Shown here in pieces: positions 11,807-29,789 of a stretch of 31,098 nt of DNA. Source of the DNA: a virus (taxonomy: Duplodnaviria > Heunggongvirae > Uroviricota > Caudoviricetes). The notes under the pieces are model-generated. The model had not been told where the DNA came from and searched no databases. It worked only from the letters and a program-made list of their open reading frames with translations. A program made the position numbers and the translations under genes. Location of the stretch: IMG/VR virus record IMGVR_UViG_3300028591_000077. One strand, given 5' to 3'. How positions within the stretch are numbered: the first letter of the stretch is position 1; each line of letters opens with the position of its first letter.

Positions 11807-11886
11807 TACCAAAGCTTAAAATTTGGTATTTTTTTATATACTTACGCCTTTATATGTTGTATAATATTATATAGAGGACGGATACA

Positions 11887-12624: not shown

Positions 12625-12929
12625 TGAAGATTGGACATATCACACGTTTGCAAGGCCTTGAGTGGACCAACTATAAACGAACAAATAAATTACACCTTTT
12701 GGCAATTGGCAAATCATCTAACGGAAATTACGTGAGTTATACAATCGATGAACGCAATCATGTAGTTAGGCACTGGTTAGGCGCTTCTGAAGTGCAAAAG
12801 CTAGAACAATCTGATTGGATTAAGACAAATAAGATTTGGGATAGCAATGATTTGTATAATCACACAATACTATGTGCTTTGAAAAAAGAATTAAAAAACT
12901 ATTTACAAACAACACAAAACGCGATATAA
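12624..12929 (+). CDS. Hypothetical protein
   Basis: TAATG overlap with the upstream gene; 101 aa. Confidence 0.7.
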   Translation: MKIGHITRLQGLEWTNYKRTNKLHLLAIGKSSNGNYVSYTIDERNHVVRHWLGASEVQKLEQSDWIKTNKIWDSNDLYNHTILCALKKELKNYLQTTQNAI

Positions 12930-16694: not shown

Positions 16695-17081
16695 ATGCAG
16701 ATGGAATTCGAGACAGACAGACAGAGACGAGATTTGATTTACGATTGCGTGAAGCTCTTGGCCCAGGCGAAGTCCCTTCCTATATATGCTAAGGCGACGG
16801 GCAAAGGGGTCGGCGACCAATGCTACCACGTCACCATAGGCGACAAGACCGTCGCGGCTCACGTGTTGGCCACTAAGTATTCCACTAAGTTCTTAGGGCA
16901 GGCGGAGTTCGTCGTCAAGGTTCCTTTTGACATCTTCGACGTAGATTCCGCTGAGTATGCCGCCGTCGACATGAAGTTCGACGAGCATGAGAAGGTCGCC
17001 AAGGTATACGCGAGGGTCGGACAACTAATATATAACGAATGAATTGAATGACGTCGTTCTAAATGGCCGAAGATAAACTAG
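16695..17081 (+). CDS. Hypothetical protein (likely TGA readthrough at 17040 and 17049)
   Basis: AAGGAG RBS; readthrough gives NE[W]IE[W]RRSKWPKIN-TAG, and a terminator hairpin (17080-17106) starts exactly at that TAG. Confidence 0.7.
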
Positions 17082-17161
17082 ATTCGATTTTCTCGGATCT
17101 TTTTTATTTATGTGCGCAAAATTGGGGAGATTTCGTTTTCGGGCATCGTATAATATAATGT

Positions 17162-17662
17162 ATGGATCCAGATTACTTAAAGAAGTACGAACAAATTTAT
17201 AAGAAGACCGAAGTCGACAATAGGATGATGTATGACCCGGCGTCCATGAAAAGCGTCTCAGCCACTAACGCCGCACAGAGCGCACATCAGAAGGTCATGG
17301 TAAGAAAATCACTTGTCAAAGAGGCCCTTCTCTTATTGGCGAAGTATAAGAACACGAGACTGTTGCTCGACGACTTGACGGCCCAAGAGGCATGGGGACC
17401 TATGGATCCAGTCGGCTATTCGACCAGTTATATCTTACGCTTGGTGGACGCCGACAAACGTTACATGAAGGAAATGCTCGGCGATTGGAGCAATGTCAAG
17501 GATACGATGTTAATGTTGATTAACGAATCCGACTTCGAGCCTCAATACACTCCGACCGACTATGAGCTCGGCATTAAACGCGAAGACTACGACATCAAGA
17601 CGTTGGTGACGGTGAGAGTCGCAGCCAAGATATTCCTCGCTTGGCAGAACGCAAACAAATAA
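17162..17662 (+). CDS. Hypothetical protein, probably leaderless mRNA
   Basis: 166 aa; TATAAT at 17149-17154; no SD. Confidence 0.75.
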   Translation: MDPDYLKKYEQIYKKTEVDNRMMYDPASMKSVSATNAAQSAHQKVMVRKSLVKEALLLLAKYKNTRLLLDDLTAQEAWGPMDPVGYSTSYILRLVDADKRYMKEMLGDWSNVKDTMLMLINESDFEPQYTPTDYELGIKREDYDIKTLVTVRVAAKIFLAWQNANK

Positions 17663-17663
17663 G

Positions 17664-17694
17664 AAAAACGAAATCAGGGAGATTTCGTTTTTTA
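17664..17694 (+). terminator. Terminator built from two inverted copies of the GATTTCGTTTTT box
   Basis: AAAAACGAAATC-aggga-GATTTCGTTTTT. Confidence 0.7.
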
Positions 17695-17782
17695 CTATAT
17701 TAGTGAAATCAGGGCGTTTTCGTTTCGGCGGAATCGTCCTGTTTTCAATTTTGGGAGATTTTGAATTTTCTTGAAAAAACGC

Positions 17783-17855
17783 TTTACTTTACAAACTAAC
17801 CGTGATATAATATAATGGGAGGTGTTTTTTTTTAAATAAAAAAAACACCTTTTAT
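17783..17855 (+). promoter_or_regulatory. Sigma-A-type promoter immediately followed by a 13-bp hairpin/terminator, convergent with the sRNA
   Basis: TTTACT-17-TATAAT (17783-17811); AGGTG-T8/A8-CACCT stem at 17820-17850 then TTT. Confidence 0.6.
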
Positions 17856-17861
17856 TGTCTA

Positions 17862-17994
17862 TAAAAAAGAGGCTCGACGAACCGAAGGAACGTTGAGCCA
17901 AGGAGGAATTGCCTAGCAAGGAGGACGGGCTAGGCGTGAACGAATGTCATGAGTGCCGGGAATTGTTGTGTGAGGAATATTAATGGCACTCACT
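17862..17994 (-). ncRNA. Putative trans-acting sRNA with multiple anti-Shine-Dalgarno seeds
   Basis: Minus-strand promoter TTTACA-17-TATAAT with TG extension (18028-18000); three stems; unpaired AAUAUUCCUCAC, CCGUCCUCCUU and AAUUCCUCCUU; terminator with cUUCGg in the loop and a UCUUUUUU tail. Confidence 0.65.
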
Positions 17995-17999
17995 ATTAT

Positions 18000-18028
18000 A
18001 TTATACAGTATCTTTTTCTAAATGTAAA
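18000..18028 (-). promoter_or_regulatory. Consensus sigma-A-type promoter on the minus strand (the only one I found)
   Basis: Reverse complement reads TTTACA tttagaaaaagatactg TATAAT. Confidence 0.8.
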
Positions 18029-18147
18029 CGGCAAATTTACCTAATTTCGTTTTTACTAAAAATGTTAAAAAAACAGCTATATTATGCCTGAAAATGCTGT
18101 ATAATATAATAGGTAAGTATTATGAAATAATACTTAACGGGCAAATT

Positions 18148-18354
18148 AAGGAGATTTCATTTTCTAATAAATTAATAATTTAATAAACTAATAAATTAAT
18201 GATTTAATAAATTAATAAGGCTGAAAATTTCATATCTATACTAATATTAGTATAGTACTATATATTATAAGCCTTATATATGAGCTCTAAAGTATTATAT
18301 AATATTCTATATAAATATAAGACAAAGAGGCGCGCATGCGTACGCACGCGTATA
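18148..18354. repeat. AT-rich tandem repeats, 20-bp perfect palindrome and alternating purine-pyrimidine tract
   Basis: TTAATAAA-like repeats at 18165-18218; CTATACTAATATTAGTATAG at 18236-18255; GCGCGCATGCGTACGCACGCGTATA at 18330-18354. Confidence 0.6.
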
Positions 18355-18368
18355 AAGGAGATTATGAC

Positions 18369-18680
18369 ATGAAACCAGAAGTAAAATCCAATAAGTCAGC
18401 CGCCATCAGATGTCCACATTGCGGATGAGAATACCATCCTAGCGAAATCTACGTCGGCAATGAGCTCTGGGGCGTTCCAGATTCAGTGGTAAAGGATGCG
18501 TTGGGGAAAATCCTATATGAGGACTACGCCGACGGGGACGAACCACAATCGGTAGAGCATTTCGAATGCGAGAACTGCGGCAAGCCATTCGTCATAGAGG
18601 CCAATCTTAGCTTCAAGACCAAGAAAGAGGAAGAAGAGCTGGATTTCTCAGAACAATATGTCTCCCTATTGGACGACTAA
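18369..18680 (+). CDS. Zinc-ribbon protein, 103 aa (TGA=Trp)
   Basis: AAAGGAG RBS; CPHCG[W]EY ... CENCG; TGA at 18426. Confidence 0.75.
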
Positions 18681-18745
18681 TCGTAATTAGGGAGTTTTCG
18701 TTTTTGTCGAAATTTGGGTGTTTTCGAATTTAGGGAGATTTCGTT

Positions 18746-20461
18746 ATGGTAGAGATTACTGAAATTATGCCACCAGCGAAGGTCTCAGGACTTTCGTCTT
18801 TTTTGGTACGCTTCCAATTCAGACAAGAATTAGTGGATGCCTTGAAGACGATTCCAGGAGCATATTACCATAAGAAGCTACAGGTATGAGAAGTGCCTGC
18901 GAACCAAATTGCAGAAACACTTGATATTTTGACGTTTTTAGACCAGGTTAGTATAAACTTATACGACTACGAAAAAAGTGTCCCAGAACGCGAATATGGA
19001 GCTTCTGGAGGCATTCTGCTAAATGAGAATGAGATAAATTCATTTAAAGTCAGACCTTATGACCATCAGCTTGAGGCCATAAATTATGGGTTAGCGCATC
19101 CTAACTTCCTGCTATTGGATTCGATGGGTTTGGGGAAGACCAACGAAATCATCTGATTAGCGGAAACACTAAAGCGCAGAGGGCTCCTCGAACATTGCTT
19201 CATCATATGCGGGGTGGCTGGACTTAAGCAGAACTGGAAGAAGGAAATTCAGAAGTTTTCAACCGAATCTGTTTTAGTATTGGGAGAGAAGATTTCGAAG
19301 AACGGCAAGATTTCATATATGTCGATTCCAGAGCGCGCAAAACAACTAAAGGAACCTATTAGCGAATTCTTCGTCGTCACGAATGTCGAGACCCTCAGAT
19401 CCGATCAGATCATCGAAGCTTTCAAAAAATCCACTAATAAGTTCGGGATGATCGCCGTAGATGAAGCGCATAGGGTCGCCACCAAAACGTCTCAGCAAGG
19501 CGCCAACTTGCTTAAGCTCGATGCGCAGTACAAAATCGCAGCTACAGGTACATTAATCACTAATTCGCCGATTAGCTGTTATGTTCCATTAGCCTGGACG
19601 GGTAATGACCATGCATCGCTCACGCAGTACAAAGCTCAGTACTGTGAATTCGGCGGATTCAACGGTTATCAAATAGTGGGATATCGAGGACTCGATCTGT
19701 TGAAAGACGAATTGGATTCCTGCTCACTAAGAAGAACATTAGACCAAGTAAGGGATATGCCACCTAAGACAGTCACATATGAACTACTAGAAATGGATGA
19801 TGAACATCGTAAGTTTTACGATGCTATTAAAGATGGCGTAAAAGCGGAAGCCGATAAGATTGAGTTGAATTCGAATAACCTATTGGCATTGGCTACGAGA
19901 TTACGTCAGGCATCTGTCTGCCCCAACATCCTGACATCCCAGAAGGTAAATTCCACTAAGATAGCTAGAGCCGTGGAATTGATCCAGGATCTGTGGGATC
20001 AAAAAGAGAAGGTTGTTGTGCTTTCCATATTCAAAGAATCTGTAGCAACATTATCCAGGGAGCTGCAGAACATCGGAATATTTCCACTAATAGCTACAGG
20101 TGATCTGCCAGATCAAGTTTGTTTCGACAATATGCAGAAGTTCCAAGACTCCCCTAATCCAGAGGTGTTTATCGGAACCTGAGCAAAAGCCGCTACTGGA
20201 TTTACACTAAACGCAGCCCAATACATGATCTGTTTGGATACACCTTACACCGATGCACTCTTCAGTCAGGGTACAGATCGTATTTGGAGAATCACTAATG
20301 ACAAACCGGCTTTCGTTACCGTATTAGCCTGTGAAGATTCCGTAGATGAGCGCGTTATGGAGATCGTCGAAACCAAAAAAGAACTAGGAGATTTCTTAGT
20401 AGACGGCAAAGTTTCTGATTCATTTAGGGATGAGCTTCTCAGCATCGTCAAGGGGGCCTAA
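18746..20461 (+). CDS. SNF2-family (SF2) helicase/ATPase, 571 aa (TGA=Trp)
   Basis: The track ORFs at 18893, 19214 and 20225 are one frame, joined by TGA at 18887, 19154 and 20180. Motifs: LDSMGLGKT, VDEAH, ATGT, QGTDRIWR. N-terminal extension ends K.QV[W]EVP. Confidence 0.9.
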
Positions 20462-20919: not shown

Positions 20920-21067
20920 CTTCCAGTTTTCATTTACTTTGTGCGATCTTCATGTTATAATATAAATGAGACTCAGATGAGGGAAAGAAGGAAATGTGCA
21001 CATATGCGAACAAAAATTATGAAAAAAATCCTAAAACAACTGTATGATATATTGTGAGGTGAACGAA

Positions 21068-21160
21068 ATGAAAACTATTAAGAAAACTAATGCAACCAAA
21101 GGAGCACTTGCCAAGAAGTATAGAAACAACTTCATCAAGTCCCATAAAACTGCAAGATAA
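21068..21160 (+). CDS. Small basic peptide, 30 aa (missed by the ORF track)
   Basis: GAGGTG RBS; MKTIKKTNATKGALAKKYRNNFIKSHKTAR; followed by terminator 21161-21187. Confidence 0.55.
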   Translation: MKTIKKTNATKGALAKKYRNNFIKSHKTAR

Positions 21161-21246
21161 AAAGTTGGCGAATTGTCCAACTTTTTTATTTACAAAGTCC
21201 TCAATTCACGATATAATATTTATAGAATGAATGTGAGGAATTAAAA

Positions 21247-21909
21247 ATGAAAGTAATGATCAATCAAAACGAATTCATCAACGTGTCCGGACACACCGGC
21301 AAAATGGAAGGCATCCCTTCCGTCAGCACCAACAAATTCTTGAATGAGAACTGCAAGAGGATGATGAATTCAGAAAACCCAGATTGTATTTGCAAATATT
21401 GCTACGTCGATAGGGTTACTGCAAGATATAAGGATTTAGAACCTTGCTTAACGCATAACACTGAGATTCTAACATCGAGAATTCTAACTCGTGACGAAAT
21501 CAAGGCGTTTAGCAAATTCTTCCTAAATACGACGATCGTCAGATTCGAAAGCTTTGGAGATTTAAATAATGAAATTCAACTGATCAATTATATGAATCTC
21601 GCAAGACAATGCAAACATACCAAATTCGCATTGTTCACGAAGCACTTTAAAATCGTCCATGAGTTTTTCAGGAATGGAAACAAAATGCCAGACAATGTAA
21701 CTCTTGTGTTGTCAAGTCCATTTATGGATTACCAACTCAACGATGCACTTGTCGCCACCTTCAAGAAATATCACAATAGGGTCATCACCTTTACTGTTAC
21801 CAAAGACAAGCACAATAAAGGAATCAACTGTGGTAAGCGTAAATGTGTGGAATGTCGAAATTGTTATGATGCTCGATTCCCTCATAACGTAATTGAGTTG
21901 GTTAAATAA
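21247..21909 (+). CDS. GP88-like Cys-rich (putative Fe-S/radical-SAM-related) phage protein
   Basis: KMEGIPSVST, C..CKYCY, VRFESFGDL, FALFTK and C-terminal C...C.ECRNCY motifs. Confidence 0.6.
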   Translation: MKVMINQNEFINVSGHTGKMEGIPSVSTNKFLNENCKRMMNSENPDCICKYCYVDRVTARYKDLEPCLTHNTEILTSRILTRDEIKAFSKFFLNTTIVRFESFGDLNNEIQLINYMNLARQCKHTKFALFTKHFKIVHEFFRNGNKMPDNVTLVLSSPFMDYQLNDALVATFKKYHNRVITFTVTKDKHNKGINCGKRKCVECRNCYDARFPHNVIELVK

Positions 21910-21911
21910 CA

Positions 21912-21933
21912 AAGGTCCTTCAGGACCTTTTTT
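21912..21933 (+). terminator. Intrinsic terminator
   Basis: AAAGGTCC-ttca-GGACCTTT then T tract. Confidence 0.8.
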
Positions 21934-21939
21934 CATACA

Positions 21940-22175
21940 TCGATCCGTAGAGAATCCAGGGGTACCCCCCCAAATTCGGCGAACACCACTTAATTAGTGG
22001 TTTTTTACCCCCGGGATGCCCGCCCCAAGGCGCGCGCATGCGTACGATCGGCGATCGGGGTTCCCGCATCGGTAAATTTAGTAAAATTAGTGGTTTTTCC
22101 GCAGCTGCATCGTACCCCAATGATGTTCAACATTCATGTGTGCACTAATATATAAAAAGAAACGCGCGAAAGTAG
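21940..22175. repeat. GC-rich palindromic intergenic element, member of a dispersed degenerate family
   Basis: GGGGTACCCC, CCCCCAAATTCGGC (also at 29910), AATTAGTGGTTTTT twice (reverse complement at 20474; 13-nt match at 29870) and GCGCGCATGCGTACG (also at 18330). Confidence 0.6.
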
Positions 22176-22247
22176 AAAAAACCTATTTACAGAATATCAG
22201 AATCATGGTATAATATTAATGTGAGTGAATGAAGGAGGAAATTAGTA

Positions 22248-22760
22248 ATGTTCACGAATAAAGAAATCAAGGAGATGTTCCACAAACCTCTCATAGAAAA
22301 GTTCAAGGACCTAAAGACAAGCTATTCTTGCTATGGAATCACCAACACCGTCAAAGAAGTCTTGACTGAGGTCATCAAAGGAACTAAATACAATATCGAA
22401 GACTTTGAAATCAGAAACCCTTACAACAAACATTGGGTCGTCGAAATCATCTACAAGAAATGGGCGACCGTGATTGAGATTAGGGCAAAACGCCAAGTTT
22501 CCAAAAAGAGCTATTGGGGAAACGACTATTCCTACAAAGACTTCGAAGTCGACATCTTCGGATGGGACAAAGACTTCTGGGGTCAACTAGACGAAATCGA
22601 CGTCAGCGTCGAAAGACGAATGAATTCAGAAGCCGAACAAGATCGCAAAGCCTATGAAGTCCTGACTTACGTTATGGAAAAGTTCGCCTTGAAAGACTAC
22701 CAAGCGAGAGACCTTCTCAAGAGAGCGGTCGATAGGTATTACACCTTGCTTGGTAAGTAA
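22248..22760 (+). CDS. Hypothetical early protein
   Basis: Own promoter; AAGGAGG RBS; 170 aa. Confidence 0.8.
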   Translation: MFTNKEIKEMFHKPLIEKFKDLKTSYSCYGITNTVKEVLTEVIKGTKYNIEDFEIRNPYNKHWVVEIIYKKWATVIEIRAKRQVSKKSYWGNDYSYKDFEVDIFGWDKDFWGQLDEIDVSVERRMNSEAEQDRKAYEVLTYVMEKFALKDYQARDLLKRAVDRYYTLLGK

Positions 22761-22789
22761 TCGCTAAATTATTAGATAAGGAGATCATC

Positions 22790-22999
22790 ATGACGCCAAC
22801 AGAAAAAGTAATATTCGATCAAGTGTTCAAGAACTTCCAAGAGACTTATCCAGAAGTCAAAGTAGAACATCCATATGACGATGAGTATATGATATTCGTC
22901 GTTAACGGAAATGCGATAGACGGATTCAATCCAGAAGGACATAATCTATTATACTGTCTATCAGAACTTACTAAAGCCTACGAGTTCGAACTTCGATAA
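22790..22999 (+). CDS. Hypothetical protein
   Basis: AAGGAG RBS; preceded by GCTAAATT at 22763. Confidence 0.75.
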   Translation: MTPTEKVIFDQVFKNFQETYPEVKVEHPYDDEYMIFVVNGNAIDGFNPEGHNLLYCLSELTKAYEFELR

Positions 23000-23066
23000 A
23001 AAATAAAAAAGCCGTTTACGAAGACGGCTTTTTACGTTATAATTATTTATGTAAGGAGATGAGAAC

Positions 23067-23237
23067 ATGAAAATCAAAGTCAGAGTCATCGACAAGAAAA
23101 CCGGCAAAGTTCTCGAAGGCGAGAAGAACCTTCGCAACGAAATGCATTTTGAAGTTCAGAAGAGAACTCGTGCGCATGTTTTCGTCGATCGTCGTTTCAA
23201 GAAGCCTAAACATAAAAATAAGGTCGACGACGAATAA
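23067..23237 (+). CDS. Small basic protein, 56 aa (missed by the ORF track); KPKHK tail
   Basis: Own promoter (23015) and AAGGAG RBS; MKIKVRVIDKKTGKVLEGEKNLRNEMHFEVQKRTRAHVFVDRRFKKPKHKNKVDDE. Confidence 0.75.
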   Translation: MKIKVRVIDKKTGKVLEGEKNLRNEMHFEVQKRTRAHVFVDRRFKKPKHKNKVDDE

Positions 23238-23306
23238 AACCGTTTACGAATATCATTAAACATGATATAATATAATTGACAAAGATAAAAGGAGGAATTA
23301 AAATCT

Positions 23307-23741
23307 ATGTCAGACAATAAAGAACGTTCCGTCAGGGAATGGCAAAAACTATTTGAGGCTGGAGTCTTCGACTCTCATGACGTCCGCTGTCAGTGTGCCG
23401 CCGGTTGGTATGACTGGTTCTGCAAGGAATCTAGTTTGGCCGGCAAAACCAAAAGGTTAGGAAGCCTCGTCAAGCAAGTCAAAGACGGTGGTAAGGTTGA
23501 CCTTGACAGTATGTATGTCTGGTTCAAGAACAACTGTCCTTGTGTTGGTCCACTCTACGATGACTTCCGATTCGCCGATCGTGAAACCGGTGATGTTCAA
23601 TTCACTATCGCCGTCGGTGATACTCGTGCCGAACATCGTTATGAAGTTTGGGGTCGTCACAATGACTTTAGCGGTCCGATCATCGGCTTCGATACTTCCA
23701 AAGAATTGATTAAGTGGCTTAACCAACCTTGGCAAGAATAA
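23307..23741 (+). CDS. Hypothetical early protein (GWYDWFC...FKNNCP motif)
   Basis: Own promoter; AAGGAGGAATT RBS; 144 aa; 7 Trp, all TGG. Confidence 0.8.
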   Translation: MSDNKERSVREWQKLFEAGVFDSHDVRCQCAAGWYDWFCKESSLAGKTKRLGSLVKQVKDGGKVDLDSMYVWFKNNCPCVGPLYDDFRFADRETGDVQFTIAVGDTRAEHRYEVWGRHNDFSGPIIGFDTSKELIKWLNQPWQE

Positions 23742-23809
23742 ATTAAAAAAGGGGTTTACAAACCCCTTTTTTCGTGATATAATATATACAGAAAGAGTGA
23801 GGAACTATT

Positions 23810-23983
23810 ATGGAAAAAAAGAAAATTCACATTGTCGTCGCCGATGGAAGGGTTGAGTCCATCTTCTCTGATGAAGACCTTGACGTCGAAGTCATCGATT
23901 TTGACGGAGACTATGAAGAACAACAGAAGTTGGGCGACTATGTTGACGAACTCCGTGCCAACCTTAAGGAGGTTGTCTGCTAA
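23810..23983 (+). CDS. Small acidic protein, 57 aa (missed by the ORF track)
   Basis: GTGAGGAA RBS; MEKKKIHIVVADGRVESIFSDEDLDVEVIDFDGD...; TAATG overlap with the next gene. Confidence 0.75.
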   Translation: MEKKKIHIVVADGRVESIFSDEDLDVEVIDFDGDYEEQQKLGDYVDELRANLKEVVC

Positions 23984-24180
23984 TGAAGTTCGAGATTCAA
24001 TACATCCGTTCTTGCGGCGACCTTAACGAACATGTCTTGTATGAGGAACTTGAATTCAACAGCAAGACTAAAGCGTTAAAGCACGCTCGCGAAACCAAAA
24101 AGAAAATAGCGAGCGAATGTCATTACAGATTCCCTCGCGATATCATAAACTACATTATTAAAGAAATTGATAAAAAGTAG
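23983..24180 (+). CDS. Hypothetical protein
   Basis: AAGGAGG RBS; 65 aa. Confidence 0.7.
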   Translation: MKFEIQYIRSCGDLNEHVLYEELEFNSKTKALKHARETKKKIASECHYRFPRDIINYIIKEIDKK

Positions 24181-24236
24181 TTTACAAATCAAAGAAACCA
24201 TGATATAATACAAATATAGTTAAGGAGGAAAACATT

Positions 24237-24479
24237 ATGTCAGCATTTTATGGGATGGTCCGTGGAAACCGCGGAGCCGCAACTCGTGGAGGTTCTAAGA
24301 ACTCAGGTTACAAAGCAACCTGTCAGTCTTGGGACGGTTCAGTAATCGTCACTATGGATTATGACAACGAAGACAAGCTCAAGGTTCGCCTTGAAGTCGC
24401 CGATAGTTCTTCTACTTACGGCGATGTCGTCTTCAGCGGAACTCTTCAAGAGCTTAAGGAAAAGCTCTCAGCGAAATGA
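24237..24479 (+). CDS. Hypothetical early protein, ending at TGA (or TAA 24488 if read through)
   Basis: Own promoter; AAGGAGG RBS; ATGA overlap with the next gene. Confidence 0.75.
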   Translation: MSAFYGMVRGNRGAATRGGSKNSGYKATCQSWDGSVIVTMDYDNEDKLKVRLEVADSSSTYGDVVFSGTLQELKEKLSAK

Positions 24480-24646
24480 AGACCATAACGATCGAACTCA
24501 CTGAAGACGAAGCGGAAGTAGTGGATAACTACATATTCAGAAAGATGTGCCGACTTGAAGAAGCACATCTCGAAGAGTCATTCTGCTATCCTAACTTAGC
24601 CTCGGCACATCGTAAGATACAGCGAGCTCGAAAAGAAAATAAATAA
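24476..24646 (+). CDS. Small hypothetical protein, 56 aa (missed by the ORF track)
   Basis: ATGA-coupled; MKTITIELTEDEAEVVDNYIFRKMCRLEEAHLEESFCYPNLASAHRKIQRARKENK. Confidence 0.7.
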   Translation: MKTITIELTEDEAEVVDNYIFRKMCRLEEAHLEESFCYPNLASAHRKIQRARKENK

Positions 24647-24709
24647 AAAAAGGGTTTACAAAAGCCCTTTTTTATGTTATAATATATATATAGAAAGTGA
24701 GGAATGTAT

Positions 24710-25042
24710 ATGGAAACACATACAATCAAATTGGATACAGAAGTCGTCGGGACAAAGGTATTGTTCGCCGGCAAGACTAAAAAGATTGAACTCAATAAGT
24801 ATTATGATTTAGATGGAACAATCATCAATGAAGGCAAAGACACTATCAACTATGAAAATGAAGTGCCATTCGAAATCATCGAAAAGAAAGTCAAATACAA
24901 CTGGAAGTATGTCTCTCCGCAAGTATTAGAGCATTGGGAAATCAAAGTCAATGGCATGAGGATATGCACTGACGTCGAATTGACTGGATACAAAGTTCTC
25001 AAAACCAAATTAGTATTGACTGGATGCACAGGAGCAGGCTAA
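24710..25042 (+). CDS. Hypothetical early protein
   Basis: GTGAGGAAT RBS favours ATG 24710. Confidence 0.75.
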   Translation: METHTIKLDTEVVGTKVLFAGKTKKIELNKYYDLDGTIINEGKDTINYENEVPFEIIEKKVKYNWKYVSPQVLEHWEIKVNGMRICTDVELTGYKVLKTKLVLTGCTGAG

Positions 25043-25329
25043 TGGAAAAGTATTACAAAGTAAGAACAAAGAACATCGACTACGATGTTACAGCGGAAGA
25101 TTTAAATTACGACCGCTACGACATTGACATCGACGACATGGATGAAGCAGAAATCGATAAGCACATCGCTGAAGTCAAGAACAGCATTCAGCAAGAGTTC
25201 ATCTTGGAAATCGAATGCGAACCTGAAGACCTAACCGATATGGTGTGTGATGCCATCAGTGAAGAGTCTGGCTGGCTAGTCAACTCATTCGACTTCGATG
25301 TTCTTGAAGAAAAAGAAATAGAAGATTAA
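25042..25329 (+). CDS. Highly acidic small protein
   Basis: TAATG overlap; D/E-rich throughout. Confidence 0.75.
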   Translation: MEKYYKVRTKNIDYDVTAEDLNYDRYDIDIDDMDEAEIDKHIAEVKNSIQQEFILEIECEPEDLTDMVCDAISEESGWLVNSFDFDVLEEKEIED

Positions 25330-25332
25330 ATG

Positions 25333-25360
25333 CCACAGGGAAACCTGTGGTTTTCTTTTT
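25333..25360 (+). terminator. Intrinsic terminator with GAAA tetraloop
   Basis: CCACAGG-gaaa-CCTGTGG then TTTTCTTTTT. Confidence 0.85.
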
Positions 25361-25530
25361 TCGAATTTGTACGCGCATCGGATTGGATTTCCGATAAAAA
25401 CTACTAATAGTAGAAAATAGCTGCGCATCTGGATCCCCGGCGCGGATCGGTGGATCGAAAATAAGTTTAAAAAACTATTTACAAATATCTTAAGTTGGTG
25501 TATAATTATATTAGAGAGTGAGGAAATATT

Positions 25531-25839
25531 ATGAATTTAAGAAGATACTACATATTCCAATTACCACACAACAATCCTAAATTGTTTAGGCACTTTAAAG
25601 AAGATGAGACCATCGACTTAGGAGACTATACACCTGTATGGACCGATGAGTGTGGTTATCAGAATGACTTAGAACTCTGTGAAAAGTTATTCGAACAATT
25701 CAACATCAATCATCCTAAGAACTTCGCCGGCCATTCAATGTCAGTCAGTGATATCGTTATGATTAAAGATGGCAAAGACTGTAAGTTCTATTATTGTGAT
25801 GCCGTTGGTTTTAAAAAGATTGAAAAAATAACAAAATAA
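25531..25839 (+). CDS. YodL-domain protein
   Basis: YYIFQL...LFEQFNINHPKNFAGHSMSVSDIVMI...YYCDAVGFKKI matches the YodL-like family signature. Confidence 0.85.
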   Translation: MNLRRYYIFQLPHNNPKLFRHFKEDETIDLGDYTPVWTDECGYQNDLELCEKLFEQFNINHPKNFAGHSMSVSDIVMIKDGKDCKFYYCDAVGFKKIEKITK

Positions 25840-25899
25840 ACCGTTTACAAAAACGGTTTTTTATAGTATAATATAAGTAAGAAAAGTGAGGAATTAATT

Positions 25900-26622
25900 A
25901 TGTTTTACAAAAAAGGAATCGATATTACGAACGCAAAGTCTATGTATGACTTCCTGCACAATCATTATAAGTATTTTACTTTGAATAGCTGGAACTGCCT
26001 TAAGTCAGTCGCTAACAACGTTAAGCTATATAATCTCAATCTTGATGGCGATATGTGGGTAGCTCATGCTTTTATTCAAGGTGGTGAATACGAAGAGATC
26101 AATGAAATGATTCGTGAATTCGAACGTCTTCATCAAGGATACAAAGTCGGCTTCAATGGAAGAAGCGATGGTTATTTAGTCCTTTATAATAAGGATAATA
26201 ATAAGGATGTGCTTCCTGATATCATTGTCGATTATGACTATGAAGACTTCAAGTATTATGTCAAAGACTATTATGGCTCATTGAAGAACTATATGAGTGA
26301 ACTCGTATTCTATACTAAGTTAGTTCAGGACTTTGATAAGCTTTGTGACGATATCAGAGACTTCGTTAATGAATTGTCTAAGCTTGACTTCAAGGCTACT
26401 AAGCTCGAAGAAGCTGTGGAGATGTTCAATAACGACTACTGTGAAGACCTCGAAGCTTTAGAGTTCGGTCCATTGAAAGTGGAAGACGGCAAAGTCTATG
26501 TCGGATACATCAAGCAACTCAAATGTCTCTTTGAAGCATTTATCAAATATGCTGATAGATATGAAGACGAAGGCTATGAGTCTGTGTGCTCTGGCGAATA
26601 TGTTTATCTCAAGGAGAAATAA
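25900..26622 (+). CDS. Hypothetical early protein
   Basis: Own promoter; 240 aa. Confidence 0.8.
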   Translation: MFYKKGIDITNAKSMYDFLHNHYKYFTLNSWNCLKSVANNVKLYNLNLDGDMWVAHAFIQGGEYEEINEMIREFERLHQGYKVGFNGRSDGYLVLYNKDNNKDVLPDIIVDYDYEDFKYYVKDYYGSLKNYMSELVFYTKLVQDFDKLCDDIRDFVNELSKLDFKATKLEEAVEMFNNDYCEDLEALEFGPLKVEDGKVYVGYIKQLKCLFEAFIKYADRYEDEGYESVCSGEYVYLKEK

Positions 26623-26623
26623 T

Positions 26624-26941
26624 ATGGAAGAAATAAAAGTAGATTTAGAAGGTCTAGAGGACTTCGATCTGAAATCCGCCAAATATCAACTTTGGGTTTT
26701 CAAGTATGACAAGGACCAAAACATATTAGACGACAACATTATGCTTGGGGAATTCAAAACTCCCGATGCGGCGATCACTAAGGCAAAAGGATTAGTGATA
26801 AATTCCAAAGCTATGATGAATCTGGTTACCGACGAATCTTATTATCTTCAAGTAGAGGTAGAGACTGTCGTCGATACTGGAGACGGCGAAGAAAACGTCG
26901 GCACAATCTTTCAGGAAAACATACAAATGAAAGAAATTTAA
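26624..26941 (+). CDS. Hypothetical acidic protein
   Basis: AAGGAG RBS before ATG 26624. Confidence 0.75.
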   Translation: MEEIKVDLEGLEDFDLKSAKYQLWVFKYDKDQNILDDNIMLGEFKTPDAAITKAKGLVINSKAMMNLVTDESYYLQVEVETVVDTGDGEENVGTIFQENIQMKEI

Positions 26942-27013
26942 AAAAAAACTGTTTACAAATAGAAAAAATCAGTTTATAATATTATTGAAAGAAAATAAAG
27001 GAGAACAACTTTC

Positions 27014-27292
27014 ATGAAAAAAACAAAATATCTTAATCAGCAATTCGGTGTCTGGACTTGTGTTAAAGTCAATGTCTATCGTGTTCAACCTGCCTTCTTA
27101 AAAGGTTCTAAGGTTCGTTCCGCTCGTCCTCATCACCAAACCTACTCTTACGTTTTAGCTGCTAACATCTTAGGCAACGACGTTCATGTCGAACTCAATG
27201 CTAAAGAAGCTGCTCAAATGTATCGTGGCGAATTCGATCCTGTCTTCAAGGTCTTGGCCAAACAAGATAGTGCTGTCATCGCCATTCGCTAA
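27014..27292 (+). CDS. Hypothetical protein
   Basis: Own promoter; AAGGAG RBS; 92 aa. Confidence 0.75.
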   Translation: MKKTKYLNQQFGVWTCVKVNVYRVQPAFLKGSKVRSARPHHQTYSYVLAANILGNDVHVELNAKEAAQMYRGEFDPVFKVLAKQDSAVIAIR

Positions 27293-27328
27293 ACATTACG
27301 ACTTATTAATTGAAAGGAGGAAGTCACA

Positions 27329-28180
27329 ATGTTAAATGATATTAGAAAAGATTGTATCAAATACGCAAAGTGCTTAGGTGACTATCAGGCGATGTCTTGT
27401 GACGAACTCGCCGATGGTTATTGCAAAGCCCGCGATGAAGGAGATTCCATTAAGGATTCTCAATATCTTGCTGCTTTAGTCTTACGCTTTTGGTATACCA
27501 TCAAGAAAATCTTTGATAAGTGTCCAAATGTCGGTATGACTTTAGAAGATGCTTATTGCTGGTTAGTAGAAGCAATCGAATATGCCTGCAAATACCGTAA
27601 GTGGAAAGACTCTACAAATAAAGTCAATGCCCAACAATGCATCAATCAATGCATCGAGACCATTCGTTTACAACATTATTATGAAATGAACCTCGATAAG
27701 CATAAGGCTAACTATATGACCGTTTCTATGGAAACTCCTATCGCTGAAGATGGAGATTCTGAAAAGACTTTAGGCGAAACTTTAGTCGGAGACGATGGCG
27801 CTACTGACCGTGCTAAGAATGATGTCGAACTTACCGTTCAACAATTCATCGACCGCAACAAAGTCGTAGAAGCCATCATCATAGATACTATCGCTTTCAA
27901 CGATTGTCAGAAGTATACTAAAGAAGTAGTTCGTGGAGAAGATGAGGAAGGCAATCCTTACAAATACACTAAGACCTATTCCGAATTCTGGCCATTCAGA
28001 GTCGTTCAAATCTTAGGTAAACTTCCTGAAGACTACTTTGAATACTTCACTGGCAAATACAACATCACAACCGAAAAGTTAGATGCTACTCTTGCTGCGA
28101 TTCGCAAAGCAAACAATCAAAAACTCTACAAGTATGTCGATTCAACACTCGCTTCCTTGAAGAGCTACTTGAAAATGTAA
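27329..28180 (+). CDS. Divergent sigma70-family RNA polymerase sigma factor
   Basis: Region-2-like helices (ELADGY...ALVLRFW...EDAYCWLVEAIEYA) and region-3-like VSMETPIAEDGDSEKTLGETL (cf. SLDxPIGEDGD). Confidence 0.55.
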   Translation: MLNDIRKDCIKYAKCLGDYQAMSCDELADGYCKARDEGDSIKDSQYLAALVLRFWYTIKKIFDKCPNVGMTLEDAYCWLVEAIEYACKYRKWKDSTNKVNAQQCINQCIETIRLQHYYEMNLDKHKANYMTVSMETPIAEDGDSEKTLGETLVGDDGATDRAKNDVELTVQQFIDRNKVVEAIIIDTIAFNDCQKYTKEVVRGEDEEGNPYKYTKTYSEFWPFRVVQILGKLPEDYFEYFTGKYNITTEKLDATLAAIRKANNQKLYKYVDSTLASLKSYLKM

Positions 28181-28245
28181 TTTGCTAAATTTCGAAATAA
28201 AGGCTCCTTAATGGAGCTTTTTATATTGTATAATATAATAGGTAT

Positions 28246-28299
28246 ATGGAATTGAAGAGATTCCAAAATGGGCCATTCTGGGCTCAAATAAACTACTAG
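28246..28299 (+). CDS. Putative 17-aa leader peptide (uORF)
   Basis: ATG 11 nt after TG-TATAAT (28227-28234); MELKRFQNGPFWAQINY; its TAG overlaps the AGGAGGG RBS of the next gene. Confidence 0.35.
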   Translation: MELKRFQNGPFWAQINY

Positions 28300-28308
28300 G
28301 AGGGATTT

Positions 28309-29064
28309 ATGCCTGCATTAGACGCATTGTGCCCCACAGAGCACGTTATAGTTAATAAAACTGCTATTAAACTGTTAGGTTTAGAGACCGCAGTGTATTG
28401 GTCTGAACTTATGACAGTTCTTAAACAAGTCAAACTCAAAGGAACCGTAAAAAACGGGTTTTTCAAATTAGACAGAAAGTATATGGAGAGAGAAACGGGA
28501 ATTCCTCGCGATCGCCAATATCTCTGCGATGCTATTTTAGCGGAAAACGGAATCATGTTGATCTCAGAATCCGATGCGGATCATCTTGCGGTGAATTTGC
28601 CGAATTACGCCGCACTCATCATGGATGGGGAGTACGATGCGGTAATGGAGAATTCCACTAAGATTAGGGAAAAAGCCGAAAAGGCTGCCGCCCCGAAGAA
28701 AGCTCGCAAGGTTCTTACTGAAGAGGAGAAGGAAGCGAAGCGAAGAGGAATGATCGCTAATTTGTGCAATTTCGTCGTGGAGCCGGATACAGACCTACAC
28801 GATGCGTACTGTAAGTGGATTGCCACTTTAGTGGGAAACAGCCGAATCAACAGTACGACCGTTTCGACATTCGTCTCGACGATCCAGAAATCTGGGCTGC
28901 CAAAAGCTGGCCAGCTTTTCACTATCGAAAGAGCGACCGCTAATTGCTGGGTAGAAGCTTCTTGGGTGATCAACATCGCTCGTCAGGAAATGGCAAAGAA
29001 TCCGGCAGCATTCTCTACACCAATAACCACTACTAAAGTTGACAAGTCTGGACAAGGATTTTAA
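28309..29064 (+). CDS. Replication initiator/replisome-organiser-like winged-HTH protein
   Basis: NKTAIKLLGLETAVYWSEL...GFFKLDRKYMERETGIPRDRQ resembles phage initiator N-termini; C-terminal IERATANCW resembles DnaD-like ends. Confidence 0.5.
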   Translation: MPALDALCPTEHVIVNKTAIKLLGLETAVYWSELMTVLKQVKLKGTVKNGFFKLDRKYMERETGIPRDRQYLCDAILAENGIMLISESDADHLAVNLPNYAALIMDGEYDAVMENSTKIREKAEKAAAPKKARKVLTEEEKEAKRRGMIANLCNFVVEPDTDLHDAYCKWIATLVGNSRINSTTVSTFVSTIQKSGLPKAGQLFTIERATANCWVEASWVINIARQEMAKNPAAFSTPITTTKVDKSGQGF

Positions 29065-29138
29065 ATAATATTTAAAAAACTGTTTACAACCTCTTGATAT
29101 CATGATATAATAATATCAGAAAGAAAAGAGGAATTAAA

Positions 29139-29393
29139 ATGAAAAAAACAATCTACATCTTAACTGAAGCCGTCTCTGATGATGATGGAAACTTCTATGC
29201 TGATGTTTGTTCCGTCCATACTTCTAAAGACGAAGCGACAAAAGCACTTGCCAAACTTCATAAAGAAGTAAAGTCTTACTTCGAAAATCCAAATGACGAT
29301 TATTGTCGTGGAATGTGGTATGACATTTGTGAAGACGATGATATTGGCATTCGTCGTTCTGCTCGTATTGATAAGAAAGAAATCAATGTGTAA
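29139..29393 (+). CDS. Hypothetical early protein
   Basis: Own promoter; GAGGAATT RBS. Confidence 0.75.
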   Translation: MKKTIYILTEAVSDDDGNFYADVCSVHTSKDEATKALAKLHKEVKSYFENPNDDYCRGMWYDICEDDDIGIRRSARIDKKEINV

Positions 29394-29411
29394 TTAGGAG
29401 GAATTCAAAAT

Positions 29412-29789
29412 ATGGAAAAATTTTATCCTGAAGTCGGAACAGAACTCTATCTGTCTCAGAGGACTGGAAACTATTATGTCGATATGGTTAAGACTCCTTA
29501 CACCGTCATCGGCACGAATCGCGGCAAAGTCCAAATTCAATCTTGTAAGTTGATTGCTCCTGTCTATCACTGTGTCGGCAATCCTTATCTTGATAGACCT
29601 GACCTTGAAGGACAAAGAGTGTTCTTCTATGACACCGTTGCTGAGAGTATTGAACCTGACCCCGAAGGTGAAGTGTTAGAACTCAGTTGGGCTCCTAAAC
29701 ACGAACGTTGGCAAATCGACCGTTATAAAACTGGTTATCCTGAAATCGCTCACTTCGGTAAATACGAACACCAACCTTATCTCGATTAA
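29412..29789 (+). CDS. Hypothetical protein
   Basis: AGGAGGAATT RBS; terminator at 29798-29820. Confidence 0.8.
   Translation: MEKFYPEVGTELYLSQRTGNYYVDMVKTPYTVIGTNRGKVQIQSCKLIAPVYHCVGNPYLDRPDLEGQRVFFYDTVAESIEPDPEGEVLELSWAPKHERWQIDRYKTGYPEIAHFGKYEHQPYLD

Follow-up and report, generated by a model that had tools for sequence, protein, structure and literature searches.

A conserved structured RNA element with candidate anti-Shine-Dalgarno seeds in TGA-recoded rumen jumbo phages

Genomic setting of the element

The DNA analysed here, a stretch of 31,098 nucleotides that we call the window, comes from an uncultured rumen jumbo phage. All its genes are plus-strand genes, some of which use TGA as a Trp codon. 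From about position 21000 onward, and also at 12902 and 13637, short gene cassettes stand in series, each running from an A tract through TTTACA, a 17-nt spacer, TATAAT and a 15-25-nt leader with a strong Shine-Dalgarno (SD) sequence to the gene itself. The SD sequences of these early cassettes are of two types, AAGGAGGAA and (U)GUGAGGAA(U). A different arrangement is seen at genes 10171 and 17162, which look leaderless because their ATG lies directly (5-7 nt) after a promoter-like TATAATATAAT box.

The element studied here occupies positions 17863-18028 of the minus strand and consists of a promoter, three hairpins and a U-tailed terminator. It sits inside a 700-bp stretch without genes, between an upstream ORF and a pair of genes coding for a Zn-ribbon protein and an SNF2-type DNA helicase (Table 1).

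Table 1. Features of the element and of its surroundings, in window coordinates
Feature	Position	Strand	Description
Upstream ORF	17162-17662	+	Function unassigned; 5′ neighbour of the element
Convergent promoter	17788-17816 (overlapping second register, 17783-17811)	+	TTTACA-17-TATAAT, 11/12; A tract upstream
A/U-rich near-perfect hairpin	17820-17850	+	AGGUGU8-9...A8CACCU, at the start of the predicted plus-strand transcript; structure conserved
Predicted intrinsic terminator	17863-17899	-	GC-rich hairpin GGCUC...GAGCC with apical CCUUCGG, then UCUUUUUU
Seed 3, AAUUCCUCCUU	17900-17910	-	Single-stranded, between stem-loop 2 and terminator; unpaired probability 0.97-0.99
Stem-loop 2	17911-17935	-	7-bp stem; invariant 11-nt loop CCGUCCUCCUU is seed 2 (17918-17928)
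Linker UGACAUUCGUUCAC	17936-17948	-	Single-stranded, unpaired probability 0.83-0.94; core UUCGUUCA kept in all relatives
Stem-loop 1	17949-17993	-	9-bp stem; 27-nt loop with seed 1 AUAUUCCUCACA, core 17969-17977
Predicted sRNA promoter	18000-18028	-	-35 TTTACA (18028-18023), 17-nt spacer, -10 TATAAT (18005-18000), TG just upstream of -10
GAAAT...ATTTC box, then T run	18029-18056	+	Just upstream of the sRNA -35 box
Zn-ribbon gene	18369-18680	+	Downstream of the element
SNF2-type DNA helicase gene	18746-20461	+	Downstream, after the Zn-ribbon gene

A predicted small RNA gene on the minus strand

The predicted sRNA promoter, whose -10 region reads TGTATAAT, scores 11/12 against TTGACA/TATAAT and 12/12 against the TTTACA/TATAAT form that the phage itself uses. 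Its 15-mer TGTATAATATAATAG is common to the plus-strand promoters at 18100 and 28229. A first-pass annotation of the window, made from the sequence alone, had called it the only minus-strand consensus promoter. It is the sole intergenic minus-strand promoter of the window that fully matches the phage's own consensus, but one other minus-strand site, TTTGCA at 21615, reaches 11/12 and lies within a gene; there is no further one.

From this promoter, an RNA of about 131 nt is predicted, with G17993 as its 5′ end and reaching the U tract at 17863. In the minus sense it folds into exactly three hairpins, with a minimum free energy of -38.7 kcal/mol (z -4.9) that none of 200 shuffled sequences equalled. 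Three unpaired segments each carry a CCUC motif, and in the window sequence the three seeds that they form have unpaired probabilities of 0.89-0.99. The element thus has the sequence signals of a stand-alone gene, namely its own promoter and its own intrinsic terminator, both of which are kept in relatives. Altogether, the RNA of about 130 nt with promoter, three stems and U-tailed terminator that the first-pass annotation had described is recovered in signals and in fold, and the stretches that it had listed as unpaired read exactly as it had written them.

No known RNA family accounts for the element. Within the window no Rfam family reached its gathering score, and at 17600-18400 nothing had an E-value below 0.3, only noise being returned; the covariance models of RsaE/RoxS, LhrC, RNAIII and cuckoo (ar14) RNAs did not match anywhere in the window. 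Identity as a tRNA or tmRNA was ruled out, as ARAGORN found none.

Invariant loops on covarying stems in a narrow family

The family comprises 10 loci with 8 distinct sequences, from at least 8 samples of rumen and gut metagenomes. Two of the loci (L025 and L026) were reached through homologues of the upstream ORF (68-85% identity), and L028, L029 and L031-L035 were added through homologues of the Zn-ribbon protein together with one pattern scan of JGI metagenomes. A covariance model (R1) built from six of the loci found no match beyond the known loci in the 37 sources searched and no second copy in the window. A blastn search of INPHARED phages with 17600-18400 gave no match, nor did two pattern scans and one exact 23-mer search of IMG/VR, or a pattern scan of GTDB genomes. 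Through the SNF2 helicase (40-63% identity), 24 relatives were found in IMG/VR that keep the Zn-ribbon and helicase gene order and have neither the element nor a homologue of the upstream gene, relatives with about 62% helicase identity among them. In two further loci with about 70% Zn-ribbon identity (L039 and L041), the long intergenic regions are unrelated in sequence to the element. The sequence family of the element is new and belongs to a narrow clade of jumbo phages from the rumen that recode TGA.

For the comparison of these sequences we used a model-based alignment (A4), since MAFFT had misaligned loop 1 of L026. In this alignment 98.5% of the pair cells hold standard pairs, as against about 35% in controls in which the partner was slid. 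Six base pairs, divided equally between stems 1 and 2, are changed on both sides and still paired, a level of covariation that none of 500 column shuffles reached. In L026, for instance, three pairs of stem 2 differ (CCUAGC/GCUAGG has become CCCCGC/GCGGGG), and stem 2 of L032 contains a G-U pair that exists in the minus sense only. Judged by this covariation, the element is a real, conserved structured RNA element.

The loops behave in the opposite way. Over the 8 distinct sequences the seeds are invariant, as UUCCUCACA in loop 1, CCGUCCUCCUU in loop 2 and (A)AUUCCUCCUU in the linker before the terminator, the sole variation of seed 3 among relatives being one A. Even in L026, which has 27 extra nucleotides in loop 1 besides its three altered stem 2 pairs, the seeds including UUCCUCACA are unchanged, and in every variant the seeds are predicted to be unpaired, with probabilities of 0.74-1.0. 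A fourth conserved unpaired block is UUCGUUCA, in the linker between the first two hairpins. The invariance of the loops on covarying stems indicates selection on the loop sequence itself. The promoter shows a similar pattern, with -35 and -10 hexamers and 17-nt spacing kept in the relatives (TTTACA, TTTACT, TTTATT) and a divergent spacer sequence, and all of them have the U tract behind the GC hairpin (UUUUCUUUU in L026). The first-pass annotation had proposed looking for covariation across related phages and had named the loops in advance as a point on which its proposal might fall; the relatives bear it out on both.

Complementarity of the seeds to early ribosome-binding sites

Seeds 2 and 3 (UCCUCCUU) are complementary to the ribosome-binding sites (RBSs) of the AAGGAGGAA type and seed 1 (AUUCCUCACA) to those of the GUGAGGAA(U) type. 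Between seed 3 and the RBS at 23289 the match extends over 11 of 11 positions. A contiguous seed match of at least 9 nt (9-11 nt) is found at nine of the 51 RBS regions, which do not amount to nine independent events because the early RBSs belong to related cassettes. All nine genes are in the early cassette module (13695 and 21247-29412), and seed-matched RBSs are unequally distributed between early and other genes (Fisher's test, P 3e-4). When the flanks of the seeds were randomised and their UCCUC core was kept, only 0.6-1.4 genes matched, against the nine observed (P 0.000-0.002). The RBS matches that had been listed in the first-pass annotation are all present where it placed them, save for one given at 24696 that should be at 24697.

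The duplex energies give the same picture. Seed-only duplexes of -12 kcal/mol or lower are predicted at 12 of the 23 cassette RBSs, at 1 of the 28 other RBSs and in 2% of control windows, and the energies at the matched RBSs range from -12 to -17 kcal/mol. These calculations replaced an RNAduplex comparison of the whole sRNA with RBS windows, in which RBS and control windows came out alike and which is uninformative since the sRNA's own structure is ignored. For the GUGAGGAA class, the duplex with seed 1 (-14 to -17 kcal/mol) is stronger than that with a generic Firmicute 16S tail, which serves as a yardstick only.

The motifs are also unevenly placed in the window. Every further copy of the seed-complementary 9-11-mers is at an RBS. 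On the plus strand AGGAGGA occurs seven times, five times at RBSs and twice in the element, and three GAGGA motifs outside RBSs lie together in 75 nt (Poisson P ~3e-5), a clustering beyond chance. These comparisons support the view that the complementarity of the seeds to both early RBS types exceeds what the CCUC core alone would give. The RBS-match statistic would also fit an RBS mimic in the plus sense.

Two further matches were noted. The RBS of gene 11887 (11870-11886, GAGGACGG) matches the 5′ flank of loop 2, CCGUCCUC, over 8 nt (-16.1 kcal/mol); beyond the early module there is no other strong seed match. Behind the 20933 promoter, the gap contains a possible ORF of 34 codons (ATG at 21075; 21055-21179), the leader of which, UUGUGAGGUGAACGAAAUG, has a 9-nt match, GUGAACGAA (21059), to the conserved sRNA linker as well as a partial match to seed 1. 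The GUGAACGAA match was noticed post hoc; the expected number of such 9-mers is about 0.7 for the whole window and about 0.03 for RBS positions.

Convergent transcription and the choice of strand

The plus-strand promoter at 17788 is conserved in all relatives and points into the sRNA gene. The hairpin that follows it at 17820-17850 lacks its T tract in L026, L031 and L034, and plus-strand transcription therefore probably enters the sRNA gene in these three; as the T tract is found in only some of the relatives, this hairpin is not a conserved terminator. On the far side of the element, the box at 18029-18056 takes the form of a perfect 8-bp A/U-rich hairpin with a U6-7 run in L025 and L033, and could be the end of a plus-strand transcript of about 240 nt. 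Both strands of the element may thus be transcribed. The one RNA run that contains the phage, a sheep-gut metatranscriptome, yielded low-depth unstranded contigs over 16938-17763 and 17957-19378 with a gap at 17764-17956, where assembly may have been interrupted by the perfect A/T hairpin at 17820-17850.

GAAAT-N5-6-ATTTC boxes, as a rule with a T run behind them, occur at 17664-17692, 17705-17722, 18029-18056 and 18139-18165. They resemble A/U-rich intrinsic terminators or protein-binding sites, and the one directly upstream of the sRNA -35 box could regulate the sRNA gene.

Watson-Crick covariation supports both strands equally. G-U wobble pairs exist in the minus sense only at four stem sites and in the plus sense only at one, a small tally taken from an alignment that was fitted to the minus-sense model. 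Together, the promoter, the terminator and the wobble pairs favour the minus strand. A weak hint in the same direction comes from the tip of the terminator, which in the minus sense reads CCUUCGG and includes a C(UUCG)G tetraloop motif. We consider that the minus-strand RNA is probably the main product.

If both strands are transcribed, the main partner of the minus-strand RNA could be the convergent transcript from the 17788 promoter, and full-length pairing or transcriptional interference would then set the stability or the read-through of the plus transcript, read-through here heading toward the AT-rich repeat region and the Zn-ribbon and SNF2-helicase genes. Such a sense/antisense pair would resemble P22 sar, P1 c4 and the plasmid copy-control RNAs of the RNA I type, and a three-hairpin antisense RNA is a classic design for kissing-loop control, which the layout of the element fits. 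The conservation of the plus promoter and of its 5′ hairpin in all relatives agrees with this reading, as does the absence of the early-stop T tract from L026, L031 and L034. In the more distant L041, too, two promoters converge at this position, in unrelated sequence. However, loops that are complementary by construction would be free to drift, yet all three are invariant while the stems change; their matches to RBSs at other places in the genome are more than chance would give, and within the overlap there is no conserved plus-strand ORF or RBS-plus-start to mask. We regard a mainly antisense function as unlikely. It is compatible with action in trans, in which case the plus RNA would be a built-in sponge for the sRNA.

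The L041 region mentioned above (1650-2050; Zn-ribbon about 71% identical) has a minus-strand TGTATAATATAATGTGAG box facing a plus-strand TTTACT-17-TATAAT promoter, and the interval between them contains two small ORFs on the plus strand, both with good RBSs.

We hold it to be just as unlikely that the plus strand is itself the functional RNA, transcribed from the 17788 promoter over about 240 nt, with SD-like or GGA motifs in its loops and linkers. Its fold is at least as good as that of the minus strand (-46.6 kcal/mol, z -5.8), and the motifs on display, GAAGGAA, AAGGAGGAAUU, AAGGAGGACGG and GUGAGGAAU, are the mirror image of the minus loops and copy both early RBS types, flanks included. 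An RNA of this kind could act as a 30S decoy, serve as a 5′ stabiliser of the STAB-SD type or sequester an RBS-binding protein similar to CsrA or RegA. Its promoter is conserved, the box hairpin and T run at 18029-18056 lie downstream, and the single plus-only wobble position appears both as G-U and as U-G. Against it, the four minus-only wobble sites turn into A-C mismatches in the plus sense, there is no canonical terminator directly after the element, and no CsrB/RsmZ-type or other Rfam model matches. Moreover, the conserved -35 and -10 boxes of the minus strand, their fixed 17-nt spacing and the U tract after the hairpin would be left unexplained.

That the plus strand encodes a peptide in the micro-ORFs (17936-17983; 17983-18021), such as the toxin of a type I system whose antitoxin is an antisense RNA, is very improbable and was rejected, as these ORFs, which the first-pass annotation had itself raised against its proposal, are not conserved in relatives: in the window a good RBS precedes the ATG at 17983 and the 12-residue product is hydrophobic, but the GTG start is lost in L026 and the ATG in L025 and L026, frame and length differ in L031, and a membrane helix needs more than 12 residues.

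Proposed mode of action

The best-supported reading is that of a trans-acting sRNA that occludes SD sequences through three seeds, a reading which we advance tentatively, at somewhat less than an even chance. Transcription, its strand, pairing in vivo and repression are all inferred from the DNA sequence. As proposed, an RNA of about 131 nt would be made from the stand-alone gene (17993 to 17863) and would keep three pyrimidine-rich anti-SD segments single-stranded, two in hairpin loops and one in a linker. The seeds would base-pair at the RBS with mRNAs that have a long SD sequence, chiefly those of the phage's own early cassette genes, with strong-SD host mRNAs as possible further targets. 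Pairing would keep the 30S subunit off the RBS and so block translation, and genes with a short SD sequence, as well as the apparently leaderless genes 10171 and 17162, would be spared. A point against this reading is that the sRNA promoter has the -35 and -10 hexamers of the early promoters, so that the sRNA and its proposed targets would be expressed together if no regulation intervenes.

A more far-reaching version of this proposal would see in the element an RNA counterpart of the T4 RegA protein, that is a global translational off-switch for early genes whose three seeds are tuned to the two RBS types of the early cassettes and which spares middle or late genes with a weak SD sequence or none, the convergent transcript acting as a timing sponge. 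We judge this version rather doubtful. RegA shuts off many early mRNAs late by occluding their RBSs (PMC3014915). The role proposed here would be the same; the resemblance is functional and hypothetical only, as RegA is a protein.

Of the multi-seed repressor put forward in the first-pass annotation, the conserved structured element, the invariant loops and the fit of the seeds to both early RBS types hold, while the conserved convergent promoter and the GGA/SD-like loops of the plus strand keep the other strand in play. Its claim to novelty was too strong, because multi-seed C- or CU-rich sRNAs that occlude SD sequences are well known and the c4 RNA blocks an RBS through its loops: LhrC, RsaE/RoxS, RNAIII, the cuckoo RNAs and c4 of P1/P7 all precede it.

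Relation to known regulatory RNAs

The kind of RNA proposed here is already known, both from SD-occluding multi-seed sRNAs and from RBS-masking phage RNAs such as c4 of P1/P7. The closest likeness in layout is to LhrC1-5 of Listeria monocytogenes, where the SD region is bound by three redundant CU-rich sites, one each in a hairpin loop, a linker and the loop of the terminator; any of them can prevent translation from starting, and several mRNAs could be bound by a single molecule (PMC4132741). Like the candidate, LhrC is a small stand-alone sRNA of low-GC bacteria with three CU-rich motifs in loop, linker or terminator. The two are unrelated in sequence and in Rfam, and the motif is CCUCC/CCUCA with long flanks (9-11 nt) in the phage and UCCC in LhrC. 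Furthermore, the candidate is encoded by a lytic-type jumbo phage, whose own early genes give its best matches.

Other UCCC or C-rich sRNAs of Firmicutes are RsaE/RoxS, RNAIII with its hairpins 7, 13 and 14, and IsrR (PMC2790875, PMC5419742, PMC9410917). They share with the candidate the use of unpaired C-rich loops as anti-SD seeds and the combination of conserved loops with variable stems. They differ from it as chromosomal regulators of metabolism or virulence, with no model match here, whereas the seeds of the candidate mirror two specific phage RBS types. Although its working mode is likened to theirs, the candidate is not homologous to LhrC, RsaE/RoxS or RNAIII. The cuckoo or alpha-r14 RNAs (CcsR1-4, NfeR1), whose loops carry CCUCCUCCC (PMC4615179, PMC8034643), likewise expose anti-SD-like CCUCC loops on tandem hairpins, but they are alphaproteobacterial and Hfq-associated, have another loop consensus and gave no Rfam match here.

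Among phage RNAs, the c4 antisense RNA of P1/P7 pairs through its loops around the RBS of a phage gene (PMC12197685). It is also a phage-encoded structured RNA with loop sequences that block translation at an RBS. In contrast to the candidate, which is a separate convergent gene with three seeds fitting many early genes, c4 acts on one operon (ant), is processed from that operon's own transcript and controls immunity.

Regulatory RNAs of lytic phages are, to our knowledge, few, and in the literature we found no described regulatory RNA of TGA-recoded rumen jumbo phages. The element is a covariation-supported candidate with a specific, testable mechanism proposed for it and a defined set of targets, the AAGGAGGAA and GUGAGGAA early RBSs. 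If the proposal is correct, an sRNA, and not a protein repressor, would set the timing of the phage's translation programme, and what would be new is the use of such an RNA by a lytic-type jumbo phage against its own set of early RBSs. Together with the RBSs that they match, the three short seeds would in addition provide a compact, portable translational off-switch for Gram-positive-type systems.

Other features of the locus

Besides the early cassette promoters, the window contains a second promoter-like class, (T/C)GTATAATATAA(T/A/C), which is without a -35 TTTACA and is found on the plus strand at 781, 10160, 16184, 17149, 18100 and 28229. The sRNA promoter and the 17788 promoter both join a box of this second class to an early-type -35.

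The region adjoining the helicase, at 18085-18360, is a candidate replication origin. The 18100 promoter and a conserved 5′ hairpin (GGUAAGUAUUAU...AUAAUACUUAAC) stand first in it; behind them are repeats of the TAATAAATTAATAA type whose copy number varies between relatives, a conserved palindrome, ATACTAATATTAGTAT, and a GC-rich palindrome just before the Zn-ribbon RBS.
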